A stretch of 64,000 nt of DNA, taken from contig CAVYSW010000006.1 in assembly GCA_963771275.1 (NCBI GenBank), forward strand, positions 1-64,000. The letters are read 5' to 3'. Both the position numbers and the translations under genes were made by a program. The notes beneath the pieces are model-generated. The model saw nothing but the letters and a program-made list of their open reading frames with translations. It did no database searches and was not told where the DNA came from. Of the stretch, positions 26,349 through 42,512 are shown piece after piece. The stretch comes from an uncultured Gemmatimonadales bacterium. GTDB lineage: Bacteria > Gemmatimonadota > Gemmatimonadetes > Gemmatimonadales > GWC2-71-9. Position 1 is the stretch's first letter. Each line of letters begins with the position of its first letter.

Positions 26349-26591
26349 CTACTGACTCAGCTTTTTCGGCTCGCCGTCGCTGACGTCCGCCGTTGCATCC
26401 AGCCGGCGCGTCGGCGGCGGGTTGCTCGTTCCGGCATCGACGCTCTCCTGCACTTCCTTGATGCTGCGCTTGAACTCCCGGATGCCCTTGCCGAGCGCGG
26501 AGCCCATCTCCGGAAGCCGCTTCGCTCCGAAGACGAGCAGCACGATCAGGAGAATGATGAGAATCTCCGGCATGCCGATCTGGCTGAACAT
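26349..26591 (-). CDS. tatA: Twin-arginine translocase TatA
   Basis: EILIILLIVLLVFGAKRLPE.G.ALGKGIREFK. Confidence 0.95.
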   Translation of the reverse strand: MFSQIGMPEILIILLIVLLVFGAKRLPEMGSALGKGIREFKRSIKEVQESVDAGTSNPPPTRRLDATADVSDGEPKKLSQ

Positions 26592-31490: not shown

Positions 31491-33148
31491 CTACCCCCCT
31501 CCCGCATCGGCAGCCGGATCCCGTGGCGCCGCGCCGTCTCGAGCGCGAGATCGTAGCCCGCGTCGGCATGGCGTGCGATCCCGATCGCCGGATCGTTGGT
31601 GAGCACACGCTCCAATCGGCGCGCGGCTGCGTCGGTGCCGTCGGCGACGATCACCTGGCCCGCGTGGAGGCTGTTGCCGATCCCCACCCCGCCGCCGTGA
31701 TGGAACGACACCCACGACGCGCCGGACGCCGTGTTGAGCAACGCGTTCAGGATCGGCCAGTCGGCGATGGCGTCCGAGCCGTCCTTCATCGCCTCGGTCT
31801 CGCGGAACGGCGACGCCACCGAGCCCGTGTCGAGGTGGTCGCGCCCGATCACGACGGGCGCCGAGAGCTCGCCCGCCTTCACGAGGTCGTTGAGGGCGAG
31901 CCCGAAACGGGCCCGCTCCCCCATTCCCAGCCAGCAGATCCGGGCCGGCAGCCCCTGGAACGCGACCCGCTCGGAGGCGATGCGAATCCAGTTGGCCAGG
32001 TGACGGTTCTCCGGGAACAGCTCGAGCACCAGCCGGTCGGTGCGGTGGAGGTCGCGCACGTCACCCGAGAGCACCACCCAGCGGAACGGGCCTTTCCCTT
32101 CGCAGAACAACGGGCGCACGTACTCGGGCACGTAGCCCGGGATGTCGAACGCGTCCGCGACGCCCGCGTCGAGCGCCTCCGTGCGGATGTTGTTGCCGTA
32201 GTCGAACGCGACCGCCCCGCCACGCTGCAGGTCGAGCATGGCGCGGACGTGCGCCACGATCGACGCCCGGGCGCGCCGCACGTATTCCTCCGGCTCGCGG
32301 CGCCGCAGCTCGGCCGCCGCCGCCAGGGTCAGTCCGGCCGGGATGTACCCGTTGAGCGGATCGTGCGCCGAAGTCTGATCGGTCAGCACGTCCGGCATCC
32401 AGCCGCGCCGCACGATCTCCGGCAGCACCTCGGCGCAGTTGCCTGGCAGCCCCACGGACAGGGCCTTCCGTGCGGCCTTGGCGCGCTCCACCTGCTCGAT
32501 CGCCTCGTCGAGCGAGCGCGCGGCCACGTCGAGGTAGCGGGTGGCGAGCCGGCGCTCGATGCGCGCCGGGTCCACCTCCACCGCGAGCATCACGCCCCCG
32601 TTCATCGTGGCGGCGAGCGGCTGCGCGCCACCCATGCCCCCCAGCCCCCCGGTGAGCACGGTGCGGCCCGCCAGCGTCCCGCCGAAGTGCCGCCGCCCGA
32701 CCGCCCCGAACGTCTCGTACGTGCCCTGGAGAATCCCCTGCGTCCCGATGTAGATCCAGCTGCCGGCCGTCATCTGCCCGAACATGATGAGGCCGGCCCG
32801 CTCGAGCTCGCGGAACTTGTCCCAGGTGGCCCACCGGCCCACGAGGTTCGCGTTCGCGATCAGCACGCGCGGCGCGTCCGGGTGCGTGCGGAACACGCCG
32901 ACCGGCTTCCCCGACTGCACGAGCAGGGTCTCGTCGTTTTCCAGGGTGCGGAGCGTGCGGCAGATCGCGTCGAAGCAGGGCCAGTCCCGCGCGGCCTTGC
33001 CCGTGCCGCCGTACACCACCAGATCCTGCGGTCGCTCGGCGACGTCCGGATCGAGGTTGTTCATCAGCATGCGCAGCGCCGCTTCCTGGATCCATCCCTT
33101 GCACGACAGGTCGGTTCCGCGTGGCGCCCGCACCGTTCGGGTCGTCAT
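31487..33148 (-). CDS. hutU: Urocanate hydratase
   Basis: [43 protein letters not shown]. Confidence 0.98.
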
Positions 33149-34668
33149 AGCAGCGTCTCCCTGGCCGTCAGCATGAACAGGGCTTCGAGGTCCGGGCTGA
33201 GCACGCGATCGGCCGCCAGCGGCGCCACCACCTTGCGGACCCGCGCGTGGAGCCGCTCGACCCCACGCCCCGGCCGGAGCGGCTTGCGGTACTCGAGGGC
33301 CTGCGCCGCGCACAGCAGCTCCGCCGCCACGACGCGCTGCGCGTTGGCGAGCACGCGGCGGGTCTTGTGGGCCGCGGCCATCCCCATCGGCACGACGTCC
33401 TCCTGGCTCGCGCTCGTCGGGATGGACTGCACGCTGGCCGCCGTGCAGAGAGACCGCGCCTCCGCGACCAGCGACGCCGCGGTGATCTGCACCATCATGA
33501 GACCGGAGTCCACCCCAGGCCGGGCGGCGAGAAACGCGGGCAGCCCGTCGGACAGATCGGGATTGAGCAGCCGCTCCACCCGTCGCTCGGCGATGCCGGC
33601 CAGCGTCGTGAGCGCGATCGCCAGCACGTCGAGCGCCAGCGCCACCGGTTGGCCGTGGAAGTTGCCACCCGACAGGATGGCGTCCTCGAACACCAGCGGG
33701 TTGTCGGTCGAGGCGTTGAGCTCGACGATCGCGATGCCGGCCGCGAACTCGACGGCGTCGTGCACCGGGCCAAGCACCTGCGGGGTGCAGCGCAGGCTGT
33801 AGGCGTCCTGCACGCGGGGATCATCGTGGCGGTGCGACTCCCGGATCTCGCTGTCCGCCAGCAGCTCGCGCAGCAGCGCCGCCGAGGCGAGCTGTCCCGG
33901 GTGGGGCCGCGCCCGGTGGATGCGCTCGTCGAACGGCTCCGGGGTGCCGCGCAGCGCCTCGAGCGACATGGCCGCCGCGCCATGCGCCGTGCGCCACAGG
34001 CGCCGTGCGTCGTGAACCAGCAGTGCCAGCACGGCCGTCTGCACCTGCGTGCCGTTGACCAGCGCCACGCCCTCCTTGGCCTCGAGGCGCAGCGGCGCAA
34101 TCCCGGCCCGCCGGAGCGCGTCCCGCGCCGGCATGCGCGTCGCGGGCGCCGTCGCGTCGTCGGGACGCCGCACATCCACGTCCCCCTCACCCAGCAGCGC
34201 CAGCGCGATGTGCGCGAGCGGAGCGAGATCGCCCGACGCCCCAACGCTCCCCTGCTCCGGCACCACCGGATGGATCCCGGCGTTGAGCAGCAGCACGAGG
34301 TGCTCGGCGACTTCCGGGCGGGCACCGCTGGTTTCCCGCAGCAGCACGTTCGCCCGCAGCACCATCGCGGCGCGCACCACGTCTTCGGGCAGCGGCGCGC
34401 CCACCCCGGCCGCATGGCTCAGGATCAGGTTGCGCTGCAGCTCGCGCAGCTGCTCCGGCGGAATCCGCACGTTGGCGAGCTTGCCGAACCCCGTGTTCAC
34501 CGCATAGATGGTGGCGCCGCTCGCGAGGGCGCCCTCGATCCGCTCACGCGACCGGACGGCCCGTCGCGCCGCCTCGGGGGCGATCGTCACGGGGGCGAAG
34601 TCCCGCGCGACGGCCACGACGCCCGCGATCGTGAGGGAGGCACCGTCGAGCGTGATGGGTGGAGGCAT
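33145..34668 (-). CDS. hutH: Histidine ammonia-lyase
   Basis: [17 protein letters not shown] (MIO ASG), [14 protein letters not shown]. Confidence 0.97.
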
Positions 34669-34716: not shown

Positions 34717-34810
34717 CTCAATGTCCAATGGTCAATGGCCGAATAGCCGACGGCTTTCGGCCATCGGCTATCGGCTATCGGCTTTCGGCTACCGGGTGTC
34801 GGCTACCGGC
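34717..34810. repeat. Composite heptamer inverted-repeat element
   Basis: (NYCAATG)x3 plus GCCGA units, then about eight TATCGGC-like units at 34755-34810; the lipoprotein TAG (34803-34805) lies at the outermost unit. Confidence 0.85.
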
Positions 34811-35960
34811 GCCGTACCACCACCGCGCCCTGCGCCTCGCTGGTCGTGAGCCCGCCGTGGACCTGGAGCTCGGGGTTCCCCGGGTCGGTCTGGTAGCTCC
34901 AGTCGAAGATGACGAAGTTCTGCCCCACATGCGTCGGCCGGATGGCGCCGTAGCGGGCGAAACTGTCGCCGCCATCCATCTCGAACACGTAGCCGAACCC
35001 AGGCTGCGCCAGCAGCTGCGTCGAGCCGAAGCCCGACAGCGGGGCGATGTCAATCGACGTGAGGTCGTCGACCGGGCTCAAGCCGTACTGCGTCACGGTG
35101 GCCTGCGCCGGCGCAACGAACAGCTGCTGGGTTCCTGGGTCGCGGTGAATCGTGAAATCCGACGCGGTCGACGCGGCGCCCACGAGCCCGAGCTCGCCCG
35201 GATCCACCTGCCCGTTGCCGTTCAGGTCCTGGAAGAAGCGGAACCCGGCCTGGCTCTGGTTCACGGCGTCGGCGTAGATCACCACGTTGCGCGCGTCGGG
35301 GCGCGGCGTGTCGAACCGCAGCGGCGACCACAGGCTCTCCCAGCCCTCGATGCTCTCGGCCGACACCCCGAAGCAGCGCGGTACGCCGTTCTCGAGCGCC
35401 GCGGCGATGAACTCCGGAGACACCGTCGTCCCCTCCAGCGCCCAGGTCGCGTCGCACAGATTCTGGTCGATCGAGTACCCCGTGCTGTAGACGCGGTACT
35501 CCATGAAGCCGCTCGGCTCCGAGGTAAACGGCGTGTCGTCCCACGCCAGGTAGATCGCGCCGTTGAGCGAGGTGCTGGTGAGGTACGTCGGCGCGCTGAG
35601 CCGCAGGCGCTCGTCCACCTCCACCTCGGTGAGGGCGCTCTCATCCCCGCTCGTGCTCACCGCCGACACGGCGTAGTCCAAGTCGGGGATGCCCGCGTCG
35701 TGGAACGTCGTGGACGTGGTCTCGCCCCGCAGGTCGTACTGGCCCGATGAGCCGGGTCGCGAGTAGACACGGTAGACGGCGAGATCGCTCGCCGGCACGG
35801 GATCCCACTGGAGCAGAATACCCGCCGGCGCCTGCGGGTCGCCGCTCGCGTCGAGCACGTAGAACAGGTTCTGAGGCCGGTCGATCGTGACGACCACGAC
35901 GTCGTTGCTGCACGCCGCCGCCGCGACCAGCCCAACGAGTAGCACGGGGTATCGCATCAT
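34803..35960 (-). CDS. Hypothetical lipoprotein with fibronectin-III-like domains
   Basis: MMRYPVLLVGLVAAAAC lipobox; two LxWD...YRVY...(Y/F)xVSA....ES repeats. Confidence 0.7.
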   Translation of the reverse strand: MMRYPVLLVGLVAAAACSNDVVVVTIDRPQNLFYVLDASGDPQAPAGILLQWDPVPASDLAVYRVYSRPGSSGQYDLRGETTSTTFHDAGIPDLDYAVSAVSTSGDESALTEVEVDERLRLSAPTYLTSTSLNGAIYLAWDDTPFTSEPSGFMEYRVYSTGYSIDQNLCDATWALEGTTVSPEFIAAALENGVPRCFGVSAESIEGWESLWSPLRFDTPRPDARNVVIYADAVNQSQAGFRFFQDLNGNGQVDPGELGLVGAASTASDFTIHRDPGTQQLFVAPAQATVTQYGLSPVDDLTSIDIAPLSGFGSTQLLAQPGFGYVFEMDGGDSFARYGAIRPTHVGQNFVIFDWSYQTDPGNPELQVHGGLTTSEAQGAVVVRRR

Positions 35961-35997
35961 GACCATTCGCCTCGTGGAAGACTCCGGCACGACCAAG

Positions 35998-36013
35998 AGC
36001 ATGGGCCGTGCCC
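35998..36013 (-). promoter_or_regulatory. sigma54-type promoter
   Basis: Minus strand GGGCACGGCCCATGCT (GG-N10-GC). Confidence 0.55.
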
Positions 36014-36029
36014 GGCACTGAATGTCCAA

Positions 36030-36054
36030 TAACCAATTGCCAGTCAACAACTTA
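36030..36054. promoter_or_regulatory. 25-bp palindromic IHF-like motif
   Basis: TAA CCAA TTG CCAGT CAA CAAC TTA. Confidence 0.6.
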
Positions 36055-36145
36055 GCACAACGGACGATCACCTCATCGGTGTCCCCTTTTTCGGACGAAT
36101 CCGCACGAACCCGCACCCAGGCTCGCCCGGACGGGCAGGCCCCGT

Positions 36146-39100
36146 TTACCTGCCCTGTGTGAGCGTCTGCTGATCGTATTGCAGCTTGATATCCGGCTGG
36201 TCGAGCAGCGAGATGAAGAAGTTGAATGCGAAGTTCCCGTTGGGCGACTTGAGGAACTGGAACGTCGCGCGCCAGCGGTGCAGGTCGCGCTCGAGCCGCA
36301 CGACGTGCTGGCCGAACTGCTTCGTGGTGAGGTTGTACTGCGTGCTCCAGGAGAGGGACCAGTTCCTCGTGGGGTCGAAGGCGAACGACAGACCGAGCGT
36401 CTGGTTGTCCGTGAACGCGCTGGGGACCGACGGGCTCTCTGCGCCGGTCGGGCGCTGGCGCTGGCTATCATACGTCACCGAGAGCGAGAGCGGGCGCTTG
36501 CCGGTCCCGCGCGTGGGGCGCAGGTCGTAGTCCTGGAACCGGTCTCCTCTGGACGTCGGGATCAGGCTCGGGGTGACGGCCGTATCGAGCGGCTCAGGGC
36601 GCTCCTCGTCGGTCGACGGGGTCGGGCCGTGCCCCGTGATCAGCCCAACGATGCTGCTGAACGTCCGCTGCGACACAGTGAATCGCGCCGAGACGTGGCT
36701 GAGGAACGGGGCGAACTTGGCGCTGTCGGTGCCCACCGGTCCGTCCCACAGATCGTGCGTGATCCCCAGCGAGAAGCCGGGCAGCAGGTCCGAGGTGAAC
36801 TGGTTGCTGATCGACGACGTGACCCACCCGGTGCGACCCTCTTCCTTCGCCTGCTCGAAATCGTAGCTGAGATCCGACGTCTGAATGCCGAGCAGCTTGA
36901 CCTTGCGGGCGTTGGCGGGGTCGGTGGTCGTGTCGCCCGGGGCCGGGCGCAGCTTGCCCTCGAGGTTCTGCGTCAGGCCGAACGAGATCCGATGCTGCGC
37001 GGGGCTGCGCAGCTGCGGGGTCCTGCCCGGTCCCGCGAGGGCGCGCGCGTACTCTTCGGGCACGTTCGCCGCCGGCGCGTAGCTCCAGCGGATGACCGGC
37101 GAGATCTTGTGGCGCATCCGGCTGATCGGTCCCACGCCGGGAAAGAAGCCGAAGAAGCTCGGCGAGATCCCGGCCCCGAAGGAGAGCCGCTTCCCCTGAC
37201 GGACGAACGACCCGTTCGTGTAGCGGTTCCGCAGCATGAACGCGCCACTCGTGCTGTTCTGGATGCCGATCGTCGGCTGGAGCTTCCACGTGGCCGGGAA
37301 CAGGGCGGGCAGACCGAAACCCGTGCTCCAGTCCACCGACGTGGCAAAGCTCAGGCCGAAGAACGTGTACGTGGTGTCGCTCGGGTCGTTGGGGTCCACG
37401 GTCAGCACGCTGTCACGCCCTTCGCGCATCTCGTCGTGCACCGAGATGCTGTTCTGCCAGTTCCACCCGCCGATGCGAAACGGCGTGCTCAGCTGCAGGT
37501 CGGTGGCGCGGTTCTGGAAGAAGATCGAGTCGACCGGAATCACCGTGTCACCCGGAAGAGGCGGGATCGGTATCGTCCTGGAGAACTGGTGCGACGCGCG
37601 GGAGTTGGTGAACGTGAGACTCGGTGACCACGTGACGAAGCTCGCGAGGTCGATCGGCATCGGACTCAGCGTCAGCGTGGGGAGCGTCTGCGTGACCCCT
37701 CCGTTGGTGAGATCCTGCTGCAGCGATCCGCCGAGCGACAGCGTGCCCCAGCCGAACACCTTGGAGAAGTTGATGGCGCTGTTCAGCTTGGCGGTCGCGA
37801 CGTAGGGATCCACCGTGTTGCGCTCCACCACCCGCGCGCTGGTGACGTAGTCCACGCTCGCCGCGAGCCGGGTGCGGACGTTGAAGTTCTGGTCGTGGCG
37901 CCACTGCACCCCAAGCGAGCGGCCACCCGGTCCGGCGTCGGTGCCATGCTCCCACAGACGCGTGAGGGCGATGCCCCCCTGGAGGAACCGGTCCAGCCAG
38001 CGGTAGCGAAACTGGCCGTTCAAGGAGGTGGAGGTCCCGGCATACCAGTCCATCGACGCCTGGAAGTCGAGGTAGTCGCTGAGGGCGAAGTAGTACCCGA
38101 CGTTGGTCACGTGGCGGGCGTACCCCTGATTGGGACGCACCAGGTCGTTGATCCCGAAGCGCGGCACGAGCATGCCGCTGCGACGGCCGGGACGCATGTC
38201 CTGGAAGATGAACGGCAGCCAGAGCACCGGGACATCCCGCACGTACAGCACCACGGGCCTGGCGATCAGAATCGTGTTGTTCACCCACTTCACCGAGCCG
38301 GCCCGGAAGTGGTAGTGCGGGATCGGCAGCTCGCAGCTCGTCAGATCGCTGCTGCGGGCGAACAGACGCACGGACGCGGAGTCGATGGAGAGCCCGCCGC
38401 GAAGGAACCAGTCCACACCCGACTGGACGAAGTTGGTGAGCGCCTCGTCCACGAAACCGCGGCGCTCGCAGGTGTCGTAGCGCATCTGGTGCCCCACCAG
38501 CACGGTGCCCTTCTGAAACAGCGTCGGCCGGCCGCGCGCCAGCAGCTCGCAGCGGGCCTGGCGAAACCGCACGGTGTCGGCCTCGAGGGTCGCGCCCTCC
38601 TGCTCGACGAGGCCCTGCCCCACCAGCGCCACCGCCTGGGAATCGGCGAACAGGGTGACGCTGTCGGCGGCGTAGCGGACGATCTTGTACGCGGTGTCTG
38701 CGAGCAGGGCGCGGATGATGGAGTCGGCCTCGGGGAAGGAGCGGGTGGGCGCGGTGGGAAGCCCCAGTTGCCGGGCCGCCGCCGTATCGAGGCCCTGTCC
38801 CGGTCCCGCGCGGGCGCGCAGGCTGTCCTGGGCGACGACCCGCGTCGAGTCGGCGCGCGGCGGCCGGGGCGGCCGCTGCGCGTGCAGGACCCCGGGAGCC
38901 GCCAGCGCCACCAGCACCAGGAGACCAGCCACCCCCCCGAGCTTGGGCTGCTGCCGCGCCTTCCAGACGATCCGCGCGATGAGGACCCCACCCTCGTAGA
39001 GCAGGATCAGCGGGATCAGCAGCATCATCATCGAGAGGGCGTCGGGCGGCGTCAGGATCGCCGCGACGATCGACGCGATCACCAGGGCGATGGGCCGGTT

Positions 39101-39685
39101 GCGGGCGAAGAACTTCGGGTTCACCAGCCCGAATGCCGCGAGCAGCACGATCACCAGCGGCAGCTCGAACATCACGCCAAACGCGAGCACGAGCTGGGCG
39201 GCAAACCCGAAGTACTCGTCGGCCGTGATGATCGACTCGAGATCGGCCCGCTGGAAGCTGAACAGGATCCTCAGCGCCGCAGGCAGGACCCATTCGTACG
39301 CGATCGACACCCCGACCACGAACAGCACCAGCCCGGCGAACAGGGCCGGCACGACGAACCGCTTCTCGCGCTGGTACAAGGCCGGAGAGAAGAACGCCCA
39401 CACCTGCCAGATGACGATCGGCGCCGCCAGCACGATGCCGACGAGCGCCGCGAGCTTGAGCGTGATGATGAACGCATCGGTGGGGCGGGTGATGAACAGC
39501 TTGCCGTCCGGCAGAAACGGCGCGATCGGGCGCTTGAGCAGCGACAGGACATCGAAATGCTGTACCACCAGGAAGCCGATGAGCGTACCGGCGATGACCG
39601 CGGTGAGGCTCCAGAGGATGCGCCACCGCAGCTCTTCCAGGTGATCCAGGAAGGGCATTTCGCCCCGCGTGCGCGCTTCGTCCAT
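36146..39685 (-). CDS. tatC: TatC fused to an LptD-like LPS-assembly outer-membrane protein
   Basis: aa 1-241 are TatC (MPFLDHLEELR, PALY..EKR, FELP, LTPPD, LYE). aa 242-269 resemble a signal peptide. The remainder is LptD-like (TSC..P.PHYHF, LWLPF, RRSGML.PRFG, GYYFALSDY.D, RDLHRW). Confidence 0.88.
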   Translation of the reverse strand: MDEARTRGEMPFLDHLEELRWRILWSLTAVIAGTLIGFLVVQHFDVLSLLKRPIAPFLPDGKLFITRPTDAFIITLKLAALVGIVLAAPIVIWQVWAFFSPALYQREKRFVVPALFAGLVLFVVGVSIAYEWVLPAALRILFSFQRADLESIITADEYFGFAAQLVLAFGVMFELPLVIVLLAAFGLVNPKFFARNRPIALVIASIVAAILTPPDALSMMMLLIPLILLYEGGVLIARIVWKARQQPKLGGVAGLLVLVALAAPGVLHAQRPPRPPRADSTRVVAQDSLRARAGPGQGLDTAAARQLGLPTAPTRSFPEADSIIRALLADTAYKIVRYAADSVTLFADSQAVALVGQGLVEQEGATLEADTVRFRQARCELLARGRPTLFQKGTVLVGHQMRYDTCERRGFVDEALTNFVQSGVDWFLRGGLSIDSASVRLFARSSDLTSCELPIPHYHFRAGSVKWVNNTILIARPVVLYVRDVPVLWLPFIFQDMRPGRRSGMLVPRFGINDLVRPNQGYARHVTNVGYYFALSDYLDFQASMDWYAGTSTSLNGQFRYRWLDRFLQGGIALTRLWEHGTDAGPGGRSLGVQWRHDQNFNVRTRLAASVDYVTSARVVERNTVDPYVATAKLNSAINFSKVFGWGTLSLGGSLQQDLTNGGVTQTLPTLTLSPMPIDLASFVTWSPSLTFTNSRASHQFSRTIPIPPLPGDTVIPVDSIFFQNRATDLQLSTPFRIGGWNWQNSISVHDEMREGRDSVLTVDPNDPSDTTYTFFGLSFATSVDWSTGFGLPALFPATWKLQPTIGIQNSTSGAFMLRNRYTNGSFVRQGKRLSFGAGISPSFFGFFPGVGPISRMRHKISPVIRWSYAPAANVPEEYARALAGPGRTPQLRSPAQHRISFGLTQNLEGKLRPAPGDTTTDPANARKVKLLGIQTSDLSYDFEQAKEEGRTGWVTSSISNQFTSDLLPGFSLGITHDLWDGPVGTDSAKFAPFLSHVSARFTVSQRTFSSIVGLITGHGPTPSTDEERPEPLDTAVTPSLIPTSRGDRFQDYDLRPTRGTGKRPLSLSVTYDSQRQRPTGAESPSVPSAFTDNQTLGLSFAFDPTRNWSLSWSTQYNLTTKQFGQHVVRLERDLHRWRATFQFLKSPNGNFAFNFFISLLDQPDIKLQYDQQTLTQGR

Positions 39686-39713: not shown

Positions 39714-40484
39714 CTAGGGAGTCGCCTTCAGCTTCTCGCGGGCCAGAACCGCCTCATCCGAGCGCGGATATTCGGCCAGCACCCGCTCGTAGTACCCCTT
39801 CGCGGCCGCCCGGTCCCCGCGCCGCTCCGCCATGAGGCCGAGCTTGTAGAGGGCGGTGGGCGCGCGGATCGACCTGGGGTAACCCCGGATGACCGCCTCG
39901 TAGGCCGCGGCCGCGGAATCCGTGTTGCTCCCGGCCCAGCTCTCGCCCAGGAAGTACAGGGCGTCCGGGACCCGTCCGTGGCTGGGGTAGGCCTGCAGTA
40001 ACTGCTGGAGCGCCGCGCGGGCCGCCTGTGGGCTGCCACGACGCAGCTGCTGCACGCCGAGCTCGAGCAGCTGATCGGCGCTCGGCAGCGCCTCCGCCGT
40101 CGTGTCTCCCCCCGCTCCGCCCGCCGCCGGTACCGCTTGCTGCTGCCCGCGGCGCTCGATCTGGGTGCGCAGCTCCGAGAGGCGCTGCTGGCTCTGGCCC
40201 GCGAGCTCCTGCACCTGGACCAGCTGGCGCTGGATCTCGGTGAGATCGGAGCGCATGTCGCCGCGCATCACCGTGAGCCAGCGCTGCTGCGCCGTCAGGG
40301 AGTCCTGGACCGCGCCCAGCAGGGCGATCACACGTTCCAACTCGACAGCCCGCGCGGAGTCCGCGCGGGCTGTCTCGGCACGCATCTCCTGAAGCTCGCG
40401 TTCCACGCGGCGGACGTCGCCCTTGAGCGCACAACCGCTCAGGGCGACGCACGCCGCGGCAACGACGCTGTACGACCTCCTCAC
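39714..40484 (-). CDS. cpoB: Tol-Pal protein CpoB/YbgF
   Basis: Lipobox LSGC, coiled coil, C-terminal TPRs (YP.S..AP.ALYKLG); follows pal. Confidence 0.85.
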   Translation of the reverse strand: MRRSYSVVAAACVALSGCALKGDVRRVERELQEMRAETARADSARAVELERVIALLGAVQDSLTAQQRWLTVMRGDMRSDLTEIQRQLVQVQELAGQSQQRLSELRTQIERRGQQQAVPAAGGAGGDTTAEALPSADQLLELGVQQLRRGSPQAARAALQQLLQAYPSHGRVPDALYFLGESWAGSNTDSAAAAYEAVIRGYPRSIRAPTALYKLGLMAERRGDRAAAKGYYERVLAEYPRSDEAVLAREKLKATP

Positions 40485-41119
40485 ATCCCGGCGGGGGCCG
40501 TCAGCTGATCGCCCCCCGCGGTGATGGCAACCTCATCACGCCGGTTCTTGGCCCACGCGTCCTCGGTGTGTCCAGGATCGAGTGGCTGCTCTTCGCCCAG
40601 CGAGGCGGTCATGATCCGGTCCGCCGCAATGCCGCGGTTCACCATGTACTCCTTCGCGGCCAGCGCGCGGCGGTTGCCCAGGGCCAGGTTGTACTCGTCC
40701 GAGCCCCGCTCGTCACAGTTGCCCGTGATCGTGATCCGCAGCATCGGGTTCGCCTGGAGAATCGCGATCTTGGTGTCGAGCATCGCGGCATCGCCGGGGC
40801 GGATGTTCGACTTGTCGAAGTCGAAGTGGATCATCTCGCCGAGCATGCCGGCGACCCGCGCGGTCTCACGGGCGAGGGCCGCCAGGGAGTCGGCGCGACG
40901 GCGCTCCGTGGCGAGCCGCTCGGCCTCGGCCTGCGCGCGGCGAATGCTGTCCTCGCGCGCCCGGGCCGCGGCTTCCGCCCGCGCAATCGAGTCACGAATC
41001 GCCGTTGAATCCACTGCCGGCGCCGGCGGCGGCGCGGGCTTGCCGCCGCAGGCGACCGCCGCAGCGACCACGAGAACACCGAGGCTCAGCGTCAGCGGGA
41101 TGGACAGTCTCATGTGCAT
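40481..41119 (-). CDS. pal: Peptidoglycan-associated lipoprotein
   Basis: Lipobox AVAC, IHFDFDKS, GNCDERGSDEYNLALGNRRA, KNRR. Confidence 0.95.
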   Translation of the reverse strand: MHMRLSIPLTLSLGVLVVAAAVACGGKPAPPPAPAVDSTAIRDSIARAEAAARAREDSIRRAQAEAERLATERRRADSLAALARETARVAGMLGEMIHFDFDKSNIRPGDAAMLDTKIAILQANPMLRITITGNCDERGSDEYNLALGNRRALAAKEYMVNRGIAADRIMTASLGEEQPLDPGHTEDAWAKNRRDEVAITAGGDQLTAPAGM

Positions 41120-41183
41120 ACCTCAGCGTGTTGAGAGTTCAGATTCCGTACCGCACGTCAGGAGCTTGGATAGTGGCACCAAT

Positions 41184-42512
41184 TTAATCAATTCGCGGCG
41201 ACCACGCAGGCAATCGCGTCTCGGCGCCGCGCGTCAGCTGCCGAATCCGGCCGGTCTCGAGGTCGATCACCCACAGTTGCCGCGAGCCCGTTCGGCTGGA
41301 CACGAACGCGAGGTGCCGGCCGTCGGGCGCCCAGGTGGGGTCCTCGTTGCGTCCCGCACTCGTGAGCTGTCGCACCGTCCGGCTCGCCACGTCCATCACG
41401 AAGATCTGCAGCGACCCGCCCACGTCACGATGGAACGCGATCGACGCCCCGTCCGGCGACCATTCCGGCGCGTTGGAGCTCCCGGTGACCCCGTAGTCGA
41501 ATGGGGCGAACAGCTCCTGCGCGGTGCCGTCCGACGCCATCACGTAGATCTGCGGCAGGCCGGCGCGGGTCGAGACGAACGCGATCCGACCGCCGTCCGG
41601 GCTCATCGTCGGGCTGAGGTTGTCCGCAAAGCGCCCCACCGTCAGCCGCTGCAGACAGCAGTCGCCGGCGATGTCGTAGGAGAAGATGTCGGTGCCGTCC
41701 TCTCCCGAGCGGGTGAACACCAGGGTCCGCCCGTTAGGGGAAAACGCCGGCGTGTAGTTGAGTCCCCGGCTCGTCGGCGGCACCATCCGCCGCCCCCCCG
41801 AGGCGACGTCCTGCAGGTAGATGCCACCGCCCCCGTCGGACCGAAACTCGGTGTAGGCGACGCGCCGGCCGTCGGGCGCCCACGCGGGGGAGAACACCCG
41901 GGTGGAAGGCGGTGACAGCGGGTGGAGATCGGCCCCGTCGGAGTCGATCCGATAGACCCGGCCGCCCTGCAGGAACGCGAGGCGCGTCGCCGCGGTGCCC
42001 CGCGCCCCCGTGGCCGCCTGCACCACATCGTCGCTCACGCGATGGACTGCCAGGCGGAAGCCCGGATCCGTCGCGGCCGGCAGCGCGACGGTGAGGTCGC
42101 GCCGCACGGCGGCCCCGCGCACGTCGTACACGGTGACCTGCAACGGGCCCGCGTCCGTGAGCCGCACGCGCACCGCGAAGTCGGCCCCGAGCGCCCCGTA
42201 CAGCCGGTAGTTCACGAAATCCGGCGTCGCGCCGCGTGCGCGCTGGATGCCGACGACCAGGCTGTCGTCACTCGGCAGGGTGATGACGTCGAACTGGTCG
42301 CTGAAATCGAGATCGCGCGCCAGGATCGCCCGGACCGAGTCGAGCACCGGCTCCGGCGGGGCGCCGAGCACCAGCAAGCCAGGGCGGACGCCCGGCCGGT
42401 ACGTGATCCCCACCCGCACGCCCTCCGTGGGCGGCGGCATGGTGTCCTGGGCCACGGCGACGCGTGCCCCCAGGGCGAGCGGCAGCAGCCACGCCAGTCG
42501 GCGCGCGGTCAT
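41184..42512 (-). CDS. tolB: TolB
   Basis: PD40 repeats (PAWAPDG, SPDGGRIAFVS) inside the tol-pal operon. Confidence 0.92.
   Translation of the reverse strand: MTARRLAWLLPLALGARVAVAQDTMPPPTEGVRVGITYRPGVRPGLLVLGAPPEPVLDSVRAILARDLDFSDQFDVITLPSDDSLVVGIQRARGATPDFVNYRLYGALGADFAVRVRLTDAGPLQVTVYDVRGAAVRRDLTVALPAATDPGFRLAVHRVSDDVVQAATGARGTAATRLAFLQGGRVYRIDSDGADLHPLSPPSTRVFSPAWAPDGRRVAYTEFRSDGGGGIYLQDVASGGRRMVPPTSRGLNYTPAFSPNGRTLVFTRSGEDGTDIFSYDIAGDCCLQRLTVGRFADNLSPTMSPDGGRIAFVSTRAGLPQIYVMASDGTAQELFAPFDYGVTGSSNAPEWSPDGASIAFHRDVGGSLQIFVMDVASRTVRQLTSAGRNEDPTWAPDGRHLAFVSSRTGSRQLWVIDLETGRIRQLTRGAETRLPAWSPRID

Follow-up and report, generated by a model that had tools for sequence, protein, structure and literature searches.

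A maintained tatC–lptD gene fusion with an internal signal-peptide-like linker in an uncultured Gemmatimonadales bacterium

How can a single reading frame supply both a component of the Tat system in the inner membrane and an LptD-like protein of the outer membrane? This question is raised by one locus in the window analyzed here (the whole stretch of DNA under study, 64,000 nucleotides from an uncultured Gemmatimonadales bacterium). The ORF lies on the minus strand (36146..39685; start codon ATG, stop codon 36146-36148) and consists of 1179 codons plus the stop; PF00902 and PF19838 match its 1179-aa product in the same frame. A complete TatC (aa 1-241) comes first, a linker of 28 residues that resembles a signal peptide (aa 242-269) second, and an LptD-like protein last. 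The ORF listing, the translation, and the HMM matches all bear out the initial annotation, which had described a single unbroken TatC–linker–LptD frame. We conclude that tatC::lptD is a genuine in-frame merger of two neighboring genes, of the LptD_2 type, and that it has been maintained in evolution. The whole reading, in which this maintained fusion product would insert with seven transmembrane (TM) helices and LptD would be set free by a signal peptidase I (SPase I) cut behind Ala269, is in our judgment probable.

The two modules and their genomic setting

The TatC module (38963..39685, minus strand) is matched by PF00902 over aa 14-225 (E 3.5e-61; 207.1 bits, with a cut-off of 25.1; the whole model, positions 1-208 of 208) and by TIGR00945 (201.1 bits against a cut-off of 132.7). 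Similarly, it matches the PDB profile 4htt (E 1.1e-64), and Foldseek aligns it to 4b4a, 9dzz, 9e01, and 9e02 with TMt values of 0.80-0.84 (0.84 for 4b4a, 0.83 for 9dzz). In the AF2 model, its helices fall within aa 12-245, mostly at pLDDT 75-90, and form the glove-like six-TM bundle. This is the single tatC locus of a genome that is 96.7% complete. Two TatA/B-family genes, one in the window (26445..26579, minus strand; PF02416, 72.9 bits) and a second PF02416 copy on contig C3, are its candidate partners, with which it probably acts as the Tat receptor of this bacterium. TatC proteins have six TM helices, with both the N and the C terminus in the cytoplasm. Here, however, no free cytoplasmic C terminus follows TM6, and the chain goes on with a further hydrophobic segment, the seventh, and then LptD. 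A cut at A269 would leave the C terminus of TatC in the periplasm; to our knowledge, there is no tested precedent for Tat function when a signal peptide is retained on TatC.

The predicted mature LptD begins at an invariant Gln270 that opens a disordered, Pro/Arg-rich spacer (aa 270-299; 38789..38878, minus strand). In homologs this spacer measures 17-46 aa, with 17% P and 15% R, and the AF2 pLDDT stays below 50 for aa 261-297. It is followed by a conserved segment (aa 300-328; 38702..38788, minus strand; D-T-A-A-A-R-x-L-G-L-P-T-A-P-x-R-x-F-P-x-x-D-S) with D300, P310, P313, P318, and D321 invariant, which is found in relatives of the same family (f1) and of f3 and is missing from f2. Beyond it lie an N-terminal beta-jellyroll (AF2 strands at aa 336-496; 38198..38680, minus strand) and a C-terminal outer-membrane beta-barrel, recognized by AF2, Foldseek, and PF19838 (aa 525-1174; 36164..38113, minus strand). 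The PF19838 (LptD_2) match starts at aa 474 (E 1.9e-39; 136.1 bits, with a cut-off of 22.5), and no other ORF of the genome is matched by this family.

A jellyroll joined to a very large barrel is also the layout of the solved LptD structures of Proteobacteria. Profile matches to 7omm (aa 335-660) and 8h1r, and to LptA 8onu (aa 336-385), agree with this likeness (profile E 7e-10), as do Foldseek alignments to 8h1s, 7omm, 4q35, and 5iv9 (E 1e-20 to 4e-26; for 8h1s, E 3.6e-26 and TMt 0.54-0.57). In contrast to those canonical proteins, the module described here belongs to LptD_2, shares only 10-15% identity with them, and has a longer disordered N terminus. The canonical family PF04453 has no match across the genome, and the NCBIfam LptD equivalogs score 16-19 bits against cut-offs of 683-944. 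LPS synthesis and inner-membrane Lpt machinery are probably present too, as indicated by LpxC (263.9 bits) and two LptF/G genes. Because the ORF is the only tatC and the only lptD of the genome, both of its products must be functional.

Directly upstream, on the same strand, lies a run of envelope genes (39714..42512): a TolB-like gene (41184-42512; PD40 match), a Pal-like gene of the OmpA family (40481-41119; OmpA match), and a CpoB/YbgF-like TPR gene (39714-40484; TPR_6/YfiO match), the last of which is separated from the fusion ORF by 28 nt.

Distribution and origin of the fusion

The fusion architecture occurs well beyond chance. It is shared by 117 full-length database proteins of at least 1100 aa, with 51-90% identity and an aligned junction. 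In addition, a match spanning the junction is present in 109 of the 124 genomes sampled from this family, a count that includes G059 and becomes 107 of 122 when two unpublished genomes (G197 and G077) are set aside. The relatives are thus mostly fused, contrary to the possibility that all of them keep the two genes apart. Fusions are also found in f2 (G029, G243, and G108) and in f4 (G195), with unrelated linkers.

Some loci of this set were inspected for internal stop codons. A congener (G006) has a real TAG approximately 100 codons into the LptD part, and either this copy is not intact or the MAG contains an error; it is the only real internal TAG among the inspected loci, a set that does not include the likewise-flagged G033 and G198. 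The apparent internal TAGs of G009, G011, and all five g33 genomes proved to be the terminal stop.

In other Gemmatimonadota (L013-L023, L036, and L039), tatC likewise precedes lptD, the two forming a pair of separate, tightly coupled genes. The unfused LptDs begin with classical signal peptides that end in A-x-A immediately before Q, and the linker of the fusion is homologous to these ordinary N-terminal signal peptides. The separate pairs of f1 and f3 also share the Pro-rich spacer of the fusion and its D-T-A-x-A-R-R-L-G-L-P segment. They keep, however, a tatC stop and an lptD start, which overlap, touch, or lie up to ~240 nt apart (f2), whereas the fusion has neither. For instance, the TGA of tatC is immediately followed by an ATG in the same frame in G288, and the lptD ATG of G129 lies 2 nt past the tatC TGA. 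From these junctions, the fusion appears to have arisen when tatC, whose end had been closely linked to the start of lptD, lost its stop codon. A quick tree of 35 loci requires at least seven changes between the fused and the split state, which suggests that these states do not differ in function.

The linker and the fate of the chain

The linker (aa 242-269; 38879..38962, minus strand) reads KARQQPK-LGGVAGLLVLVALAAPGV-LHA and is followed by Q270. Its layout, its conservation, and its homology to the signal peptides of separate LptDs identify it as a putative internal signal peptide and predicted TM7, with KARQQPK as the basic n-region, LGGVAGLLVLVALAAPGV as the h-region, and LHA as the c-region. 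The predicted SPase I site lies between Ala269, which ends at nt 38879, and Gln270, which starts at nt 38878. According to heuristic scoring, the linker shows the features of a Sec/SPase I signal (a basic n-region, an uncharged h-region, a helix-breaker, and a small residue at both -3 and -1), although it starts only at residue 242 and not at an N terminus. In the AF2 model, the linker helix is confined to 251-261, is weak (pLDDT ~30-50), and is not packed against TatC.

Across the 117 fused proteins, the cleavage-site pattern is kept; the statistics given here rest on an alignment and regular-expression heuristics of our own rather than on SignalP. Position -1 is A, G, or S in 114 of 117 (A95/G14/S5), position -3 is A, L, G, V, S, or T in all of them (A65/L26/G10/V9/S5/T2), and position +1 is invariably Q (117/117). 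A helix-breaking P or G stands at -7 to -4 in 114 of the 117, and the uncharged h-region spans 12-26 aa (mean 16.8 aa). Position -2 varies freely, and the h-region drifts as well. In the alignment, three of the 117 proteins are without a small residue at -1, which may reflect misalignment.

Gln at +1 also appears to be the general SPase I signature of this genome. Among 542 signal-peptide-like N termini, Q comes directly after a small-x-small site in 212, which is 13.3 times the background, and it is the commonest residue after AxA genome-wide. A comparable Q-rule is called Bacteroidetes-specific in the parts of the paper drawn on here, in which Gemmatimonadetes go unmentioned (PMC5837995). 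The likeness lies in the Gln at +1, genome-wide in this bacterium and invariant at the predicted site of the fusion; the rule as described there covers Bacteroidetes only, whereas the host here belongs to Gemmatimonadota. The genome contains two SPase I genes and no match to the papaya-type glutaminyl cyclase PF05096.

Cleavage by SPase I after Ala269 is most likely, as judged from these comparisons, which favor the initial proposal that the linker acts as a seventh TM helix and Sec signal and that the cut frees LptD. The ribosome would deliver a single chain of 1179 residues, as there is no stop in the sequence, and the six TatC helices would insert with both termini cytoplasmic, in line with the established topology of TatC. 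After a loop with ~8 basic residues, aa 242-269, once the signal peptide of LptD, would enter the membrane N-in/C-out as helix 7 and start the Sec-dependent translocation of the ~910-residue LptD part. Given the conserved cleavage-site features, SPase I would then cut after Ala269 at the periplasmic face. This would leave TatC with one additional short helix at its C terminus and set free an LptD whose first residue, Gln270, is probably cyclized to pyroglutamate, as in Q-rule organisms. LptD would finally reach the outer membrane and work with the LptFG-type machinery encoded by the genome.

Alternatively, LptD could be made mainly by independent internal initiation, with the full-length chain as a minor or degraded by-product. 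The junction has no ATG, as initially reported, and its in-frame GTGs encode V252, V257, and V259. The candidate start is the GTG of Val252 (VAGLL; 38930..38932, minus strand), which directly follows GGGGGG and overlaps a G7 run; in addition, a relic ATG survives near -16 to -18 in the f2/g19 fusions (G029 and G243). However, Val252 has no SD-like motif at -18 to -4, and a product started there would be without the basic n-region. Nor is this GTG conserved in relatives: the n-region has no M, V, or L in 100 of 117 fused proteins, and in 4 of 21 fused loci no ATG, GTG, or TTG precedes -8 in this frame, while the others have non-conserved ones in the h-region. No internal start codon is thus conserved, and a start with an SD-like motif, which only L012 and L035 have among the loci examined, was dismissed. 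Moreover, ribosomes translating tatC meet no stop, so that every TatC would be attached to LptD and processing would be needed anyway. We consider internal initiation unlikely.

Slightly less probable still is a chain that stays uncut or is only partly cut, in which TatC, TM7, the Pro/Arg-rich spacer, and LptD would remain covalently joined and tether the outer-membrane barrel to the inner-membrane Tat receptor across the periplasm. There is neither a stop nor a conserved internal start to separate the modules, ~66 mostly disordered residues lie between Q270 and the jellyroll (aa 336), with an estimated reach of ~20 nm when extended, and the gene follows tolB-pal-cpoB, which are trans-envelope genes. 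However, the -3/-1/+1 pattern and the helix-breaker of the c-region are kept down to ~45-50% identity while position -2 and the h-region drift, a constraint that would be needless without a cut. The h-region is short and resembles that of a signal peptide rather than an anchor. The spacer did not evolve as a tether, because separate-gene relatives have the same one, and the repeated switches between fused and split genes likewise argue against a tether. In a related and doubtful variant, some uncut chains would tether LptD or an assembly intermediate to the Tat receptor, or TM7 on TatC would serve Tat function or a handover of LptD from Sec to the outer membrane.

It is highly improbable that an assembly or sequencing indel, or a recent inactivating mutation, has falsely joined two genes. 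A G7 homopolymer does sit at the junction, at 38932-38938 as first noted, and MAGs make up many of the relatives. However, contigs of runs from three studies (X1, X2, X3, and X5) reproduce the junction with neither a stop nor an indel between the domains, in answer to the check on reads called for initially. The X1 contig, which may come from the source sample, spans 38600-39300 with a single substitution (38891 C>G, computed as synonymous: Gly265, GGG to GGC); within this interval, the others cover parts only and show no differences (X2, 38875-39300; X5, 38917-39067; X3, 38940-39090). None of the runs listed for 38600-39300 is an RNA run. The fusion also recurs in the family genomes counted above, several of which are assembled in 1-10 contigs, and in the 117 database proteins, and it is the sole copy of both genes in a nearly complete genome. 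Both alternative frames stay open past the junction (minus-strand ORFs 38341..38991 and 37548..39626), as had been claimed, and offer TatC no sensible stop. An assembly or homopolymer error was therefore ruled out. Programmed frameshifting at the G7 run, which could be slippery, was dismissed as equally improbable a source of stand-alone TatC, because the other frames run on for ~200 and ~460 codons and would yield no clean TatC, and the junction DNA of congeners has no G-run.

Known polyproteins and what the fusion means

The kind of gene described here, an internal-signal polyprotein, is already known, and the TatC–LptD pairing is a new variant that we did not find in print: among the titles and abstracts of a limited literature collection, no paper on a TatC–LptD fusion turned up in searches that also covered LptD or TatC in Gemmatimonadetes/Gemmatimonadota. 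A close bacterial counterpart is FbcH, the cytochrome b/c1 precursor polyprotein of Bradyrhizobium japonicum. Its single ORF codes for a polytopic inner-membrane protein that is followed by an internal signal peptide and another exported protein, and cleavage of the signal-peptidase type parts the two. Cleavage of FbcH was reportedly shown by experiment (Thony-Meyer and colleagues, around 1989-1991), whereas separation of the tatC::lptD chain into two mature proteins is deduced from the conservation of the cleavage site. The layout is alike, and here too one ORF holds two parts that are otherwise known as separate genes. However, FbcH yields two subunits of a single complex in the same membrane, while the products of tatC::lptD would serve unrelated machines (Tat and Lpt) in different membranes. 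Flavivirus-type polyproteins, as outlined in the sources used here, similarly rely on alternating TM segments as internal signals and on the luminal signal peptidase of the host to separate the products, but they are viral, belong to the eukaryotic ER, and give many products; tatC::lptD, in contrast, is a gene of a bacterial cell, and a single cut is predicted.

Public annotation labels the ~1170-residue fusion proteins merely as "twin-arginine translocase subunit TatC." Because only TatC is named, LptD is overlooked in most genomes of the family, which could mislead surveys of genes for outer-membrane biogenesis. More generally, the repeated gain and loss neatly illustrates how neighboring genes can fuse and split where stop and start codons overlap.

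The fusion forces equal synthesis of TatC and LptD; a 1:1 coupling of Tat and Lpt would additionally require that LptD is not initiated internally and that neither product is less stable than the other. If a tether or a role of TM7 proved true, protein export and LPS insertion would be wired together spatially, at a strict 1:1 stoichiometry. If SPase I cuts the chain, a Sec signal peptide would be shown to work behind six TM helices, and TatC to tolerate a retained seventh helix. The locus would then be a natural substrate for studying how bacterial SPase I recognizes internal signals. With such a cut, one gene and one translation product would give this family an essential inner-membrane and an essential outer-membrane protein, a cellular, family-wide counterpart to the polyproteins known elsewhere from FbcH and viruses.

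The tatC–lptD reading frame and its surroundings

The fusion gene is an uninterrupted ORF of 1179 codons, which runs from 39685 to 36146 on the minus strand and from which, as read, a single chain would be made. In this chain, TatC (PF00902) matches aa 14-225 over the full Pfam model (E 3.5e-61) and LptD_2 (PF19838) matches from aa 474 (E 1.9e-39); the score with the NCBIfam tatC equivalog, 201 bits, lies above its cut-off of 132.7. Public annotation names the protein simply TatC. The junction, ...IVW-KARQQPK-LGGVAGLLVLVALAAPGV-LHA|QRPPRPP (linker aa 242-269 plus Q270; nt 38962-38879), contains a G7 run (38932-38938), no ATG, and three in-frame GTG codons (Val252, Val257, and Val259). The other two minus-strand frames remain open past the junction (ORFs 38341..38991 and 37548..39626), which excludes frameshifting. 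All the sequence statements of the initial annotation on this ORF proved correct. At the 5' end (39656-39685, minus strand), the frame has a second ATG, Met10, besides the annotated start at Met1. Met10 is invariant in a 73-sequence alignment; residues 1-9 are unconserved with low pLDDT, and the true start may be Met10.

Mapping across the junction had been proposed as a check, and Logan contigs of four sequencing runs from three studies were placed on 38600-39300; none of the four (X1, X2, X3, and X5) contains an indel there. A 16.9-kb contig of X1, which may be the source sample, spans the whole interval with a single substitution (38891 C>G), computed as synonymous (Gly265, GGG to GGC). No differences were found in X2, from another study, over 38875-39300, in X5 over 38917-39067, or in X3 over 38940-39090. 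Fused homologues speak more decisively against an artefact than these contigs. A search with the fusion protein gave 1310 matches; among the best 120 are 117 proteins of at least 1100 aa, all of which align across the junction, with 51-90% identity to the query among the matches listed. Where the source gives a name, it is "twin-arginine translocase subunit TatC", with Gemmatimonadota or Gemmatimonadales MAGs as the origin. Together, the indel-free contigs and the 117 database proteins exclude an artefactual origin, and it is virtually certain that the fusion is real and conserved.

Both halves resemble their namesakes in structure. An AlphaFold2 model of the full chain, built from an alignment of 73 fused homologs (mean pLDDT 76.3), comprises a TatC helical bundle (12-245), a weak short helix in the linker (251-261, pLDDT ~30-50), disorder (261-297), and an LptD part with a beta-jellyroll (336-496) and a large barrel (525-1174). 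In Foldseek searches of the PDB, the top match was full-length LptD of LptDE complexes (8h1s, E 3.6e-26); TMt was 0.54-0.57 for LptD (8h1s, 7omm, 4q35, 5iv9) and 0.80-0.84 for TatC (4b4a, 9dzz, 9e01, 9e02). Similarly, a family sequence profile retrieved TatC 4htt (E 1.1e-64) and LptD 7omm (E 7.1e-10) and 8h1r (E 6.4e-8). Between the disordered spacer and the jellyroll, aa 300-328 (38702-38788, minus strand) are strongly conserved, with the consensus D-T-A-A-A-R-x-L-G-L-P-T-A-P-x-R-x-F-P-x-x-D-S, in which D300, P310, P313, P318, and D321 are invariant in 73 sequences. This segment is present in relatives from the same family (f1) and from family f3, is absent in family f2, and could be a candidate docking site for a periplasmic partner.

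In the genome (96.7% complete, 11 contigs), the fusion ORF is the one TatC locus and the only LptD_2 match, and no PF04453 LptD was found. Since the two halves are the organism's only copies, both are presumably needed. The genome also encodes two TatA/B proteins (one at 26445-26579), two LptF/G proteins, LpxC, and two SPase I enzymes in tandem. Directly upstream, on the same strand, lie genes for a TolB-like protein (PD40; 41184-42512), a Pal-like protein of the OmpA family (40481-41119), and a CpoB/YbgF-like TPR protein (39714-40484). The last is separated from the fusion by 28 nt, and the fusion ORF may therefore close a tol-pal envelope operon. Directly downstream, a 437-aa ORF (34803-36116, minus strand) gave no Pfam hit at a threshold of E 0.001, and past this ORF is a gene for an aromatic amino-acid ammonia-lyase of the histidine type (33145-34668; PF00221, E 7e-191).

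Distribution and origin of the fusion

A survey of 301 genomes of the phylum contradicted the possibility, left open by the initial annotation, that all relatives carry separate genes: the junction is crossed in one frame in 108 of the 124 other f1 genomes. A further one, G059, is fused on inspection, with a longer and acidic linker, which brings the total to 109/124 (107/122 without the unpublished genomes G197 and G077). The other 15 (G016, G036, G018, G013, G068, G014, G084, G129, G135, G164, G187, G242, G251, G312, and G241) carry the two genes separately, are interrupted by a contig break, or gave an unclear match or none. The junction was checked at residue level in 21 fused loci, and the remaining genomes were scored from the survey match table. 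Flags for one internal TAG in G009, G011, and all five genomes of genus g33 proved to mark the terminal stop; G033 and G198, which bear the same flag, were left out of this inspection. Among the flagged genomes inspected, a genuine internal TAG is confined to G006, a congener (locus L005, G006:C161). It lies at about codon 368, ~100 codons into the LptD part (G-L-V-E-stop versus G-L-V-E-Q-E-G, with Gln in the others), and reflects either an error in the MAG, a polymorphism, or pseudogenisation of this copy.

Beyond f1, fusions were found in f2 (G029 and G243 of one genus, G108 of another) and in f4 (G195), with linkers unrelated to that of f1. G029 carries, in addition to its fusion (L024, G029:C6), a stand-alone tatC (G029:C2:141617-142339), in contrast to f1 genomes such as the present one, where the fused copy is the only tatC. 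The G029 fusion arose independently.

Where tatC and lptD are separate, they are usually adjacent and ordered as in the fusion, and the tatC stop abuts the lptD start: in G288, TGA is immediately followed by ATG in the same frame, and in G129 the TGA and the ATG after it are 2 nt apart. With stop and start in contact, one substitution or small indel suffices for fusion. In a quick maximum-likelihood tree computed from the LptD portion at 35 loci, at least seven changes between fused and split states are required, all forced by well-supported branches; as the loci were chosen to include both states, this number should be read as a minimum rather than as a rate.

The linker as a former signal peptide

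The N-terminus of separate LptD proteins is a typical signal peptide, such as M-K-R-W-W-L-L-A-A-L-L-A-A-P-A-L-A-H-A|Q in G021 or one that ends in ...S-A-P-M-S-L-S-A|Q in G025; by eye, 11-12 of 13 unfused loci end in A|Q. At the homologous position, fused proteins have a signal-peptide element that lacks a start codon. Judged by its sequence, the linker derives from the former signal peptide of LptD. From our own alignment of the 117 fused proteins, scored with simple rules, position -1 of the predicted site Ala269|Gln270 is A in 95, G in 14, S in 5, Q in 2, and T in 1, and position -3 is A in 65, L in 26, G in 10, V in 9, S in 5, and T in 2. Position -2 is free to vary (E, Q, A, R, H, S, and others), +1 is Gln in 117/117, and P or G occurs at -7..-4 in 114. 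The predicted site thus has the classical (-3, -1) pattern with a c-region helix-breaker. Conservation of the cleavage site and of the h-region had been proposed as a check: the former is conserved, and the latter keeps its uncharged length (12-26 residues, mean 16.8) but drifts in sequence. Because the pattern is kept despite this drift, at identities of ~50%, which would otherwise be hard to explain, the site is probably still used.

Given the invariant Gln, +1 residues were examined across the genome in ORFs chosen by GC3, among which signal-peptide-like N-termini were kept. Gln was the commonest +1 residue (95/540, or 17.6%, versus a background of 2.9%). After a small-x-small site it reached 13.3 times background (212/542), with all other residues at 1-4 times, lipobox Cys excepted, and it was the top residue after A-x-A (89 cases). 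At predicted sites, Gln is therefore the organism's ordinary SPase I signature, to which the predicted site of the fusion conforms. The Q-rule was described for Bacteroidetes and called Bacteroidetes-specific (PMC5837995); the paper makes no mention of Gemmatimonadetes. No match to the papaya-type glutaminyl cyclase (PF05096) was found in the genome.

Fate of the chain and known polyproteins

TatC has an N-in topology and is C-in after TM6. The basic loop of the linker (~8 residues) would accordingly remain cytoplasmic and the h-region would cross N-in/C-out, which is the orientation of a signal peptide. The LptD part would then be translocated in a Sec-dependent manner and SPase I would cut after Ala269, such that TatC retains a short helix as its seventh and LptD, whose N-terminal Gln270 is probably converted to pyroglutamate, goes to the outer membrane. 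We consider this complete scheme, including cleavage at Ala269|Gln270, probable from the sequence comparisons. It is physically conceivable that the chain instead stays uncut as a tether, with ~66 mostly disordered residues between Q270 and the jellyroll. However, unfused relatives have the same spacer, the predicted site is constrained, and fused and split states interchange freely among lineages. LptD could also arise by internal initiation, in this genome at GTG252 directly after the G-run, a start that the initial annotation had raised; but no SD-like motif precedes this codon at -18..-4, and initiation there would yield a signal peptide without a basic n-region. More generally, M, V, and L are absent from the n-region in 100 of 117 fused proteins, and an in-frame ATG, GTG, or TTG before -8 is lacking in 4 of 21 fused loci. 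The others have candidate starts at varying positions within the h-region, and only L012 and L035 of the 21 have an SD-like motif upstream. Even if GTG252 were used, ribosomes translating tatC would meet no stop, so every TatC would be made with LptD attached.

Most closely related to the putatively cleaved chain are the tatC-lptD pairs that other Gemmatimonadota carry as separate genes, and by class it would be an internal-signal polyprotein or neighbour-gene fusion. To our knowledge, the closest precedent for its mechanism is FbcH of Bradyrhizobium japonicum, a cytochrome b/c1 polyprotein; a more distant analogue is found in polyproteins of viruses that are cleaved at internal signals. No description of a TatC-LptD fusion was found in the literature searched. 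Unlike both precedents, it joins products of unrelated machines that belong to different membranes, and cleavage or functional coupling, if true, is what would make this fusion remarkable.
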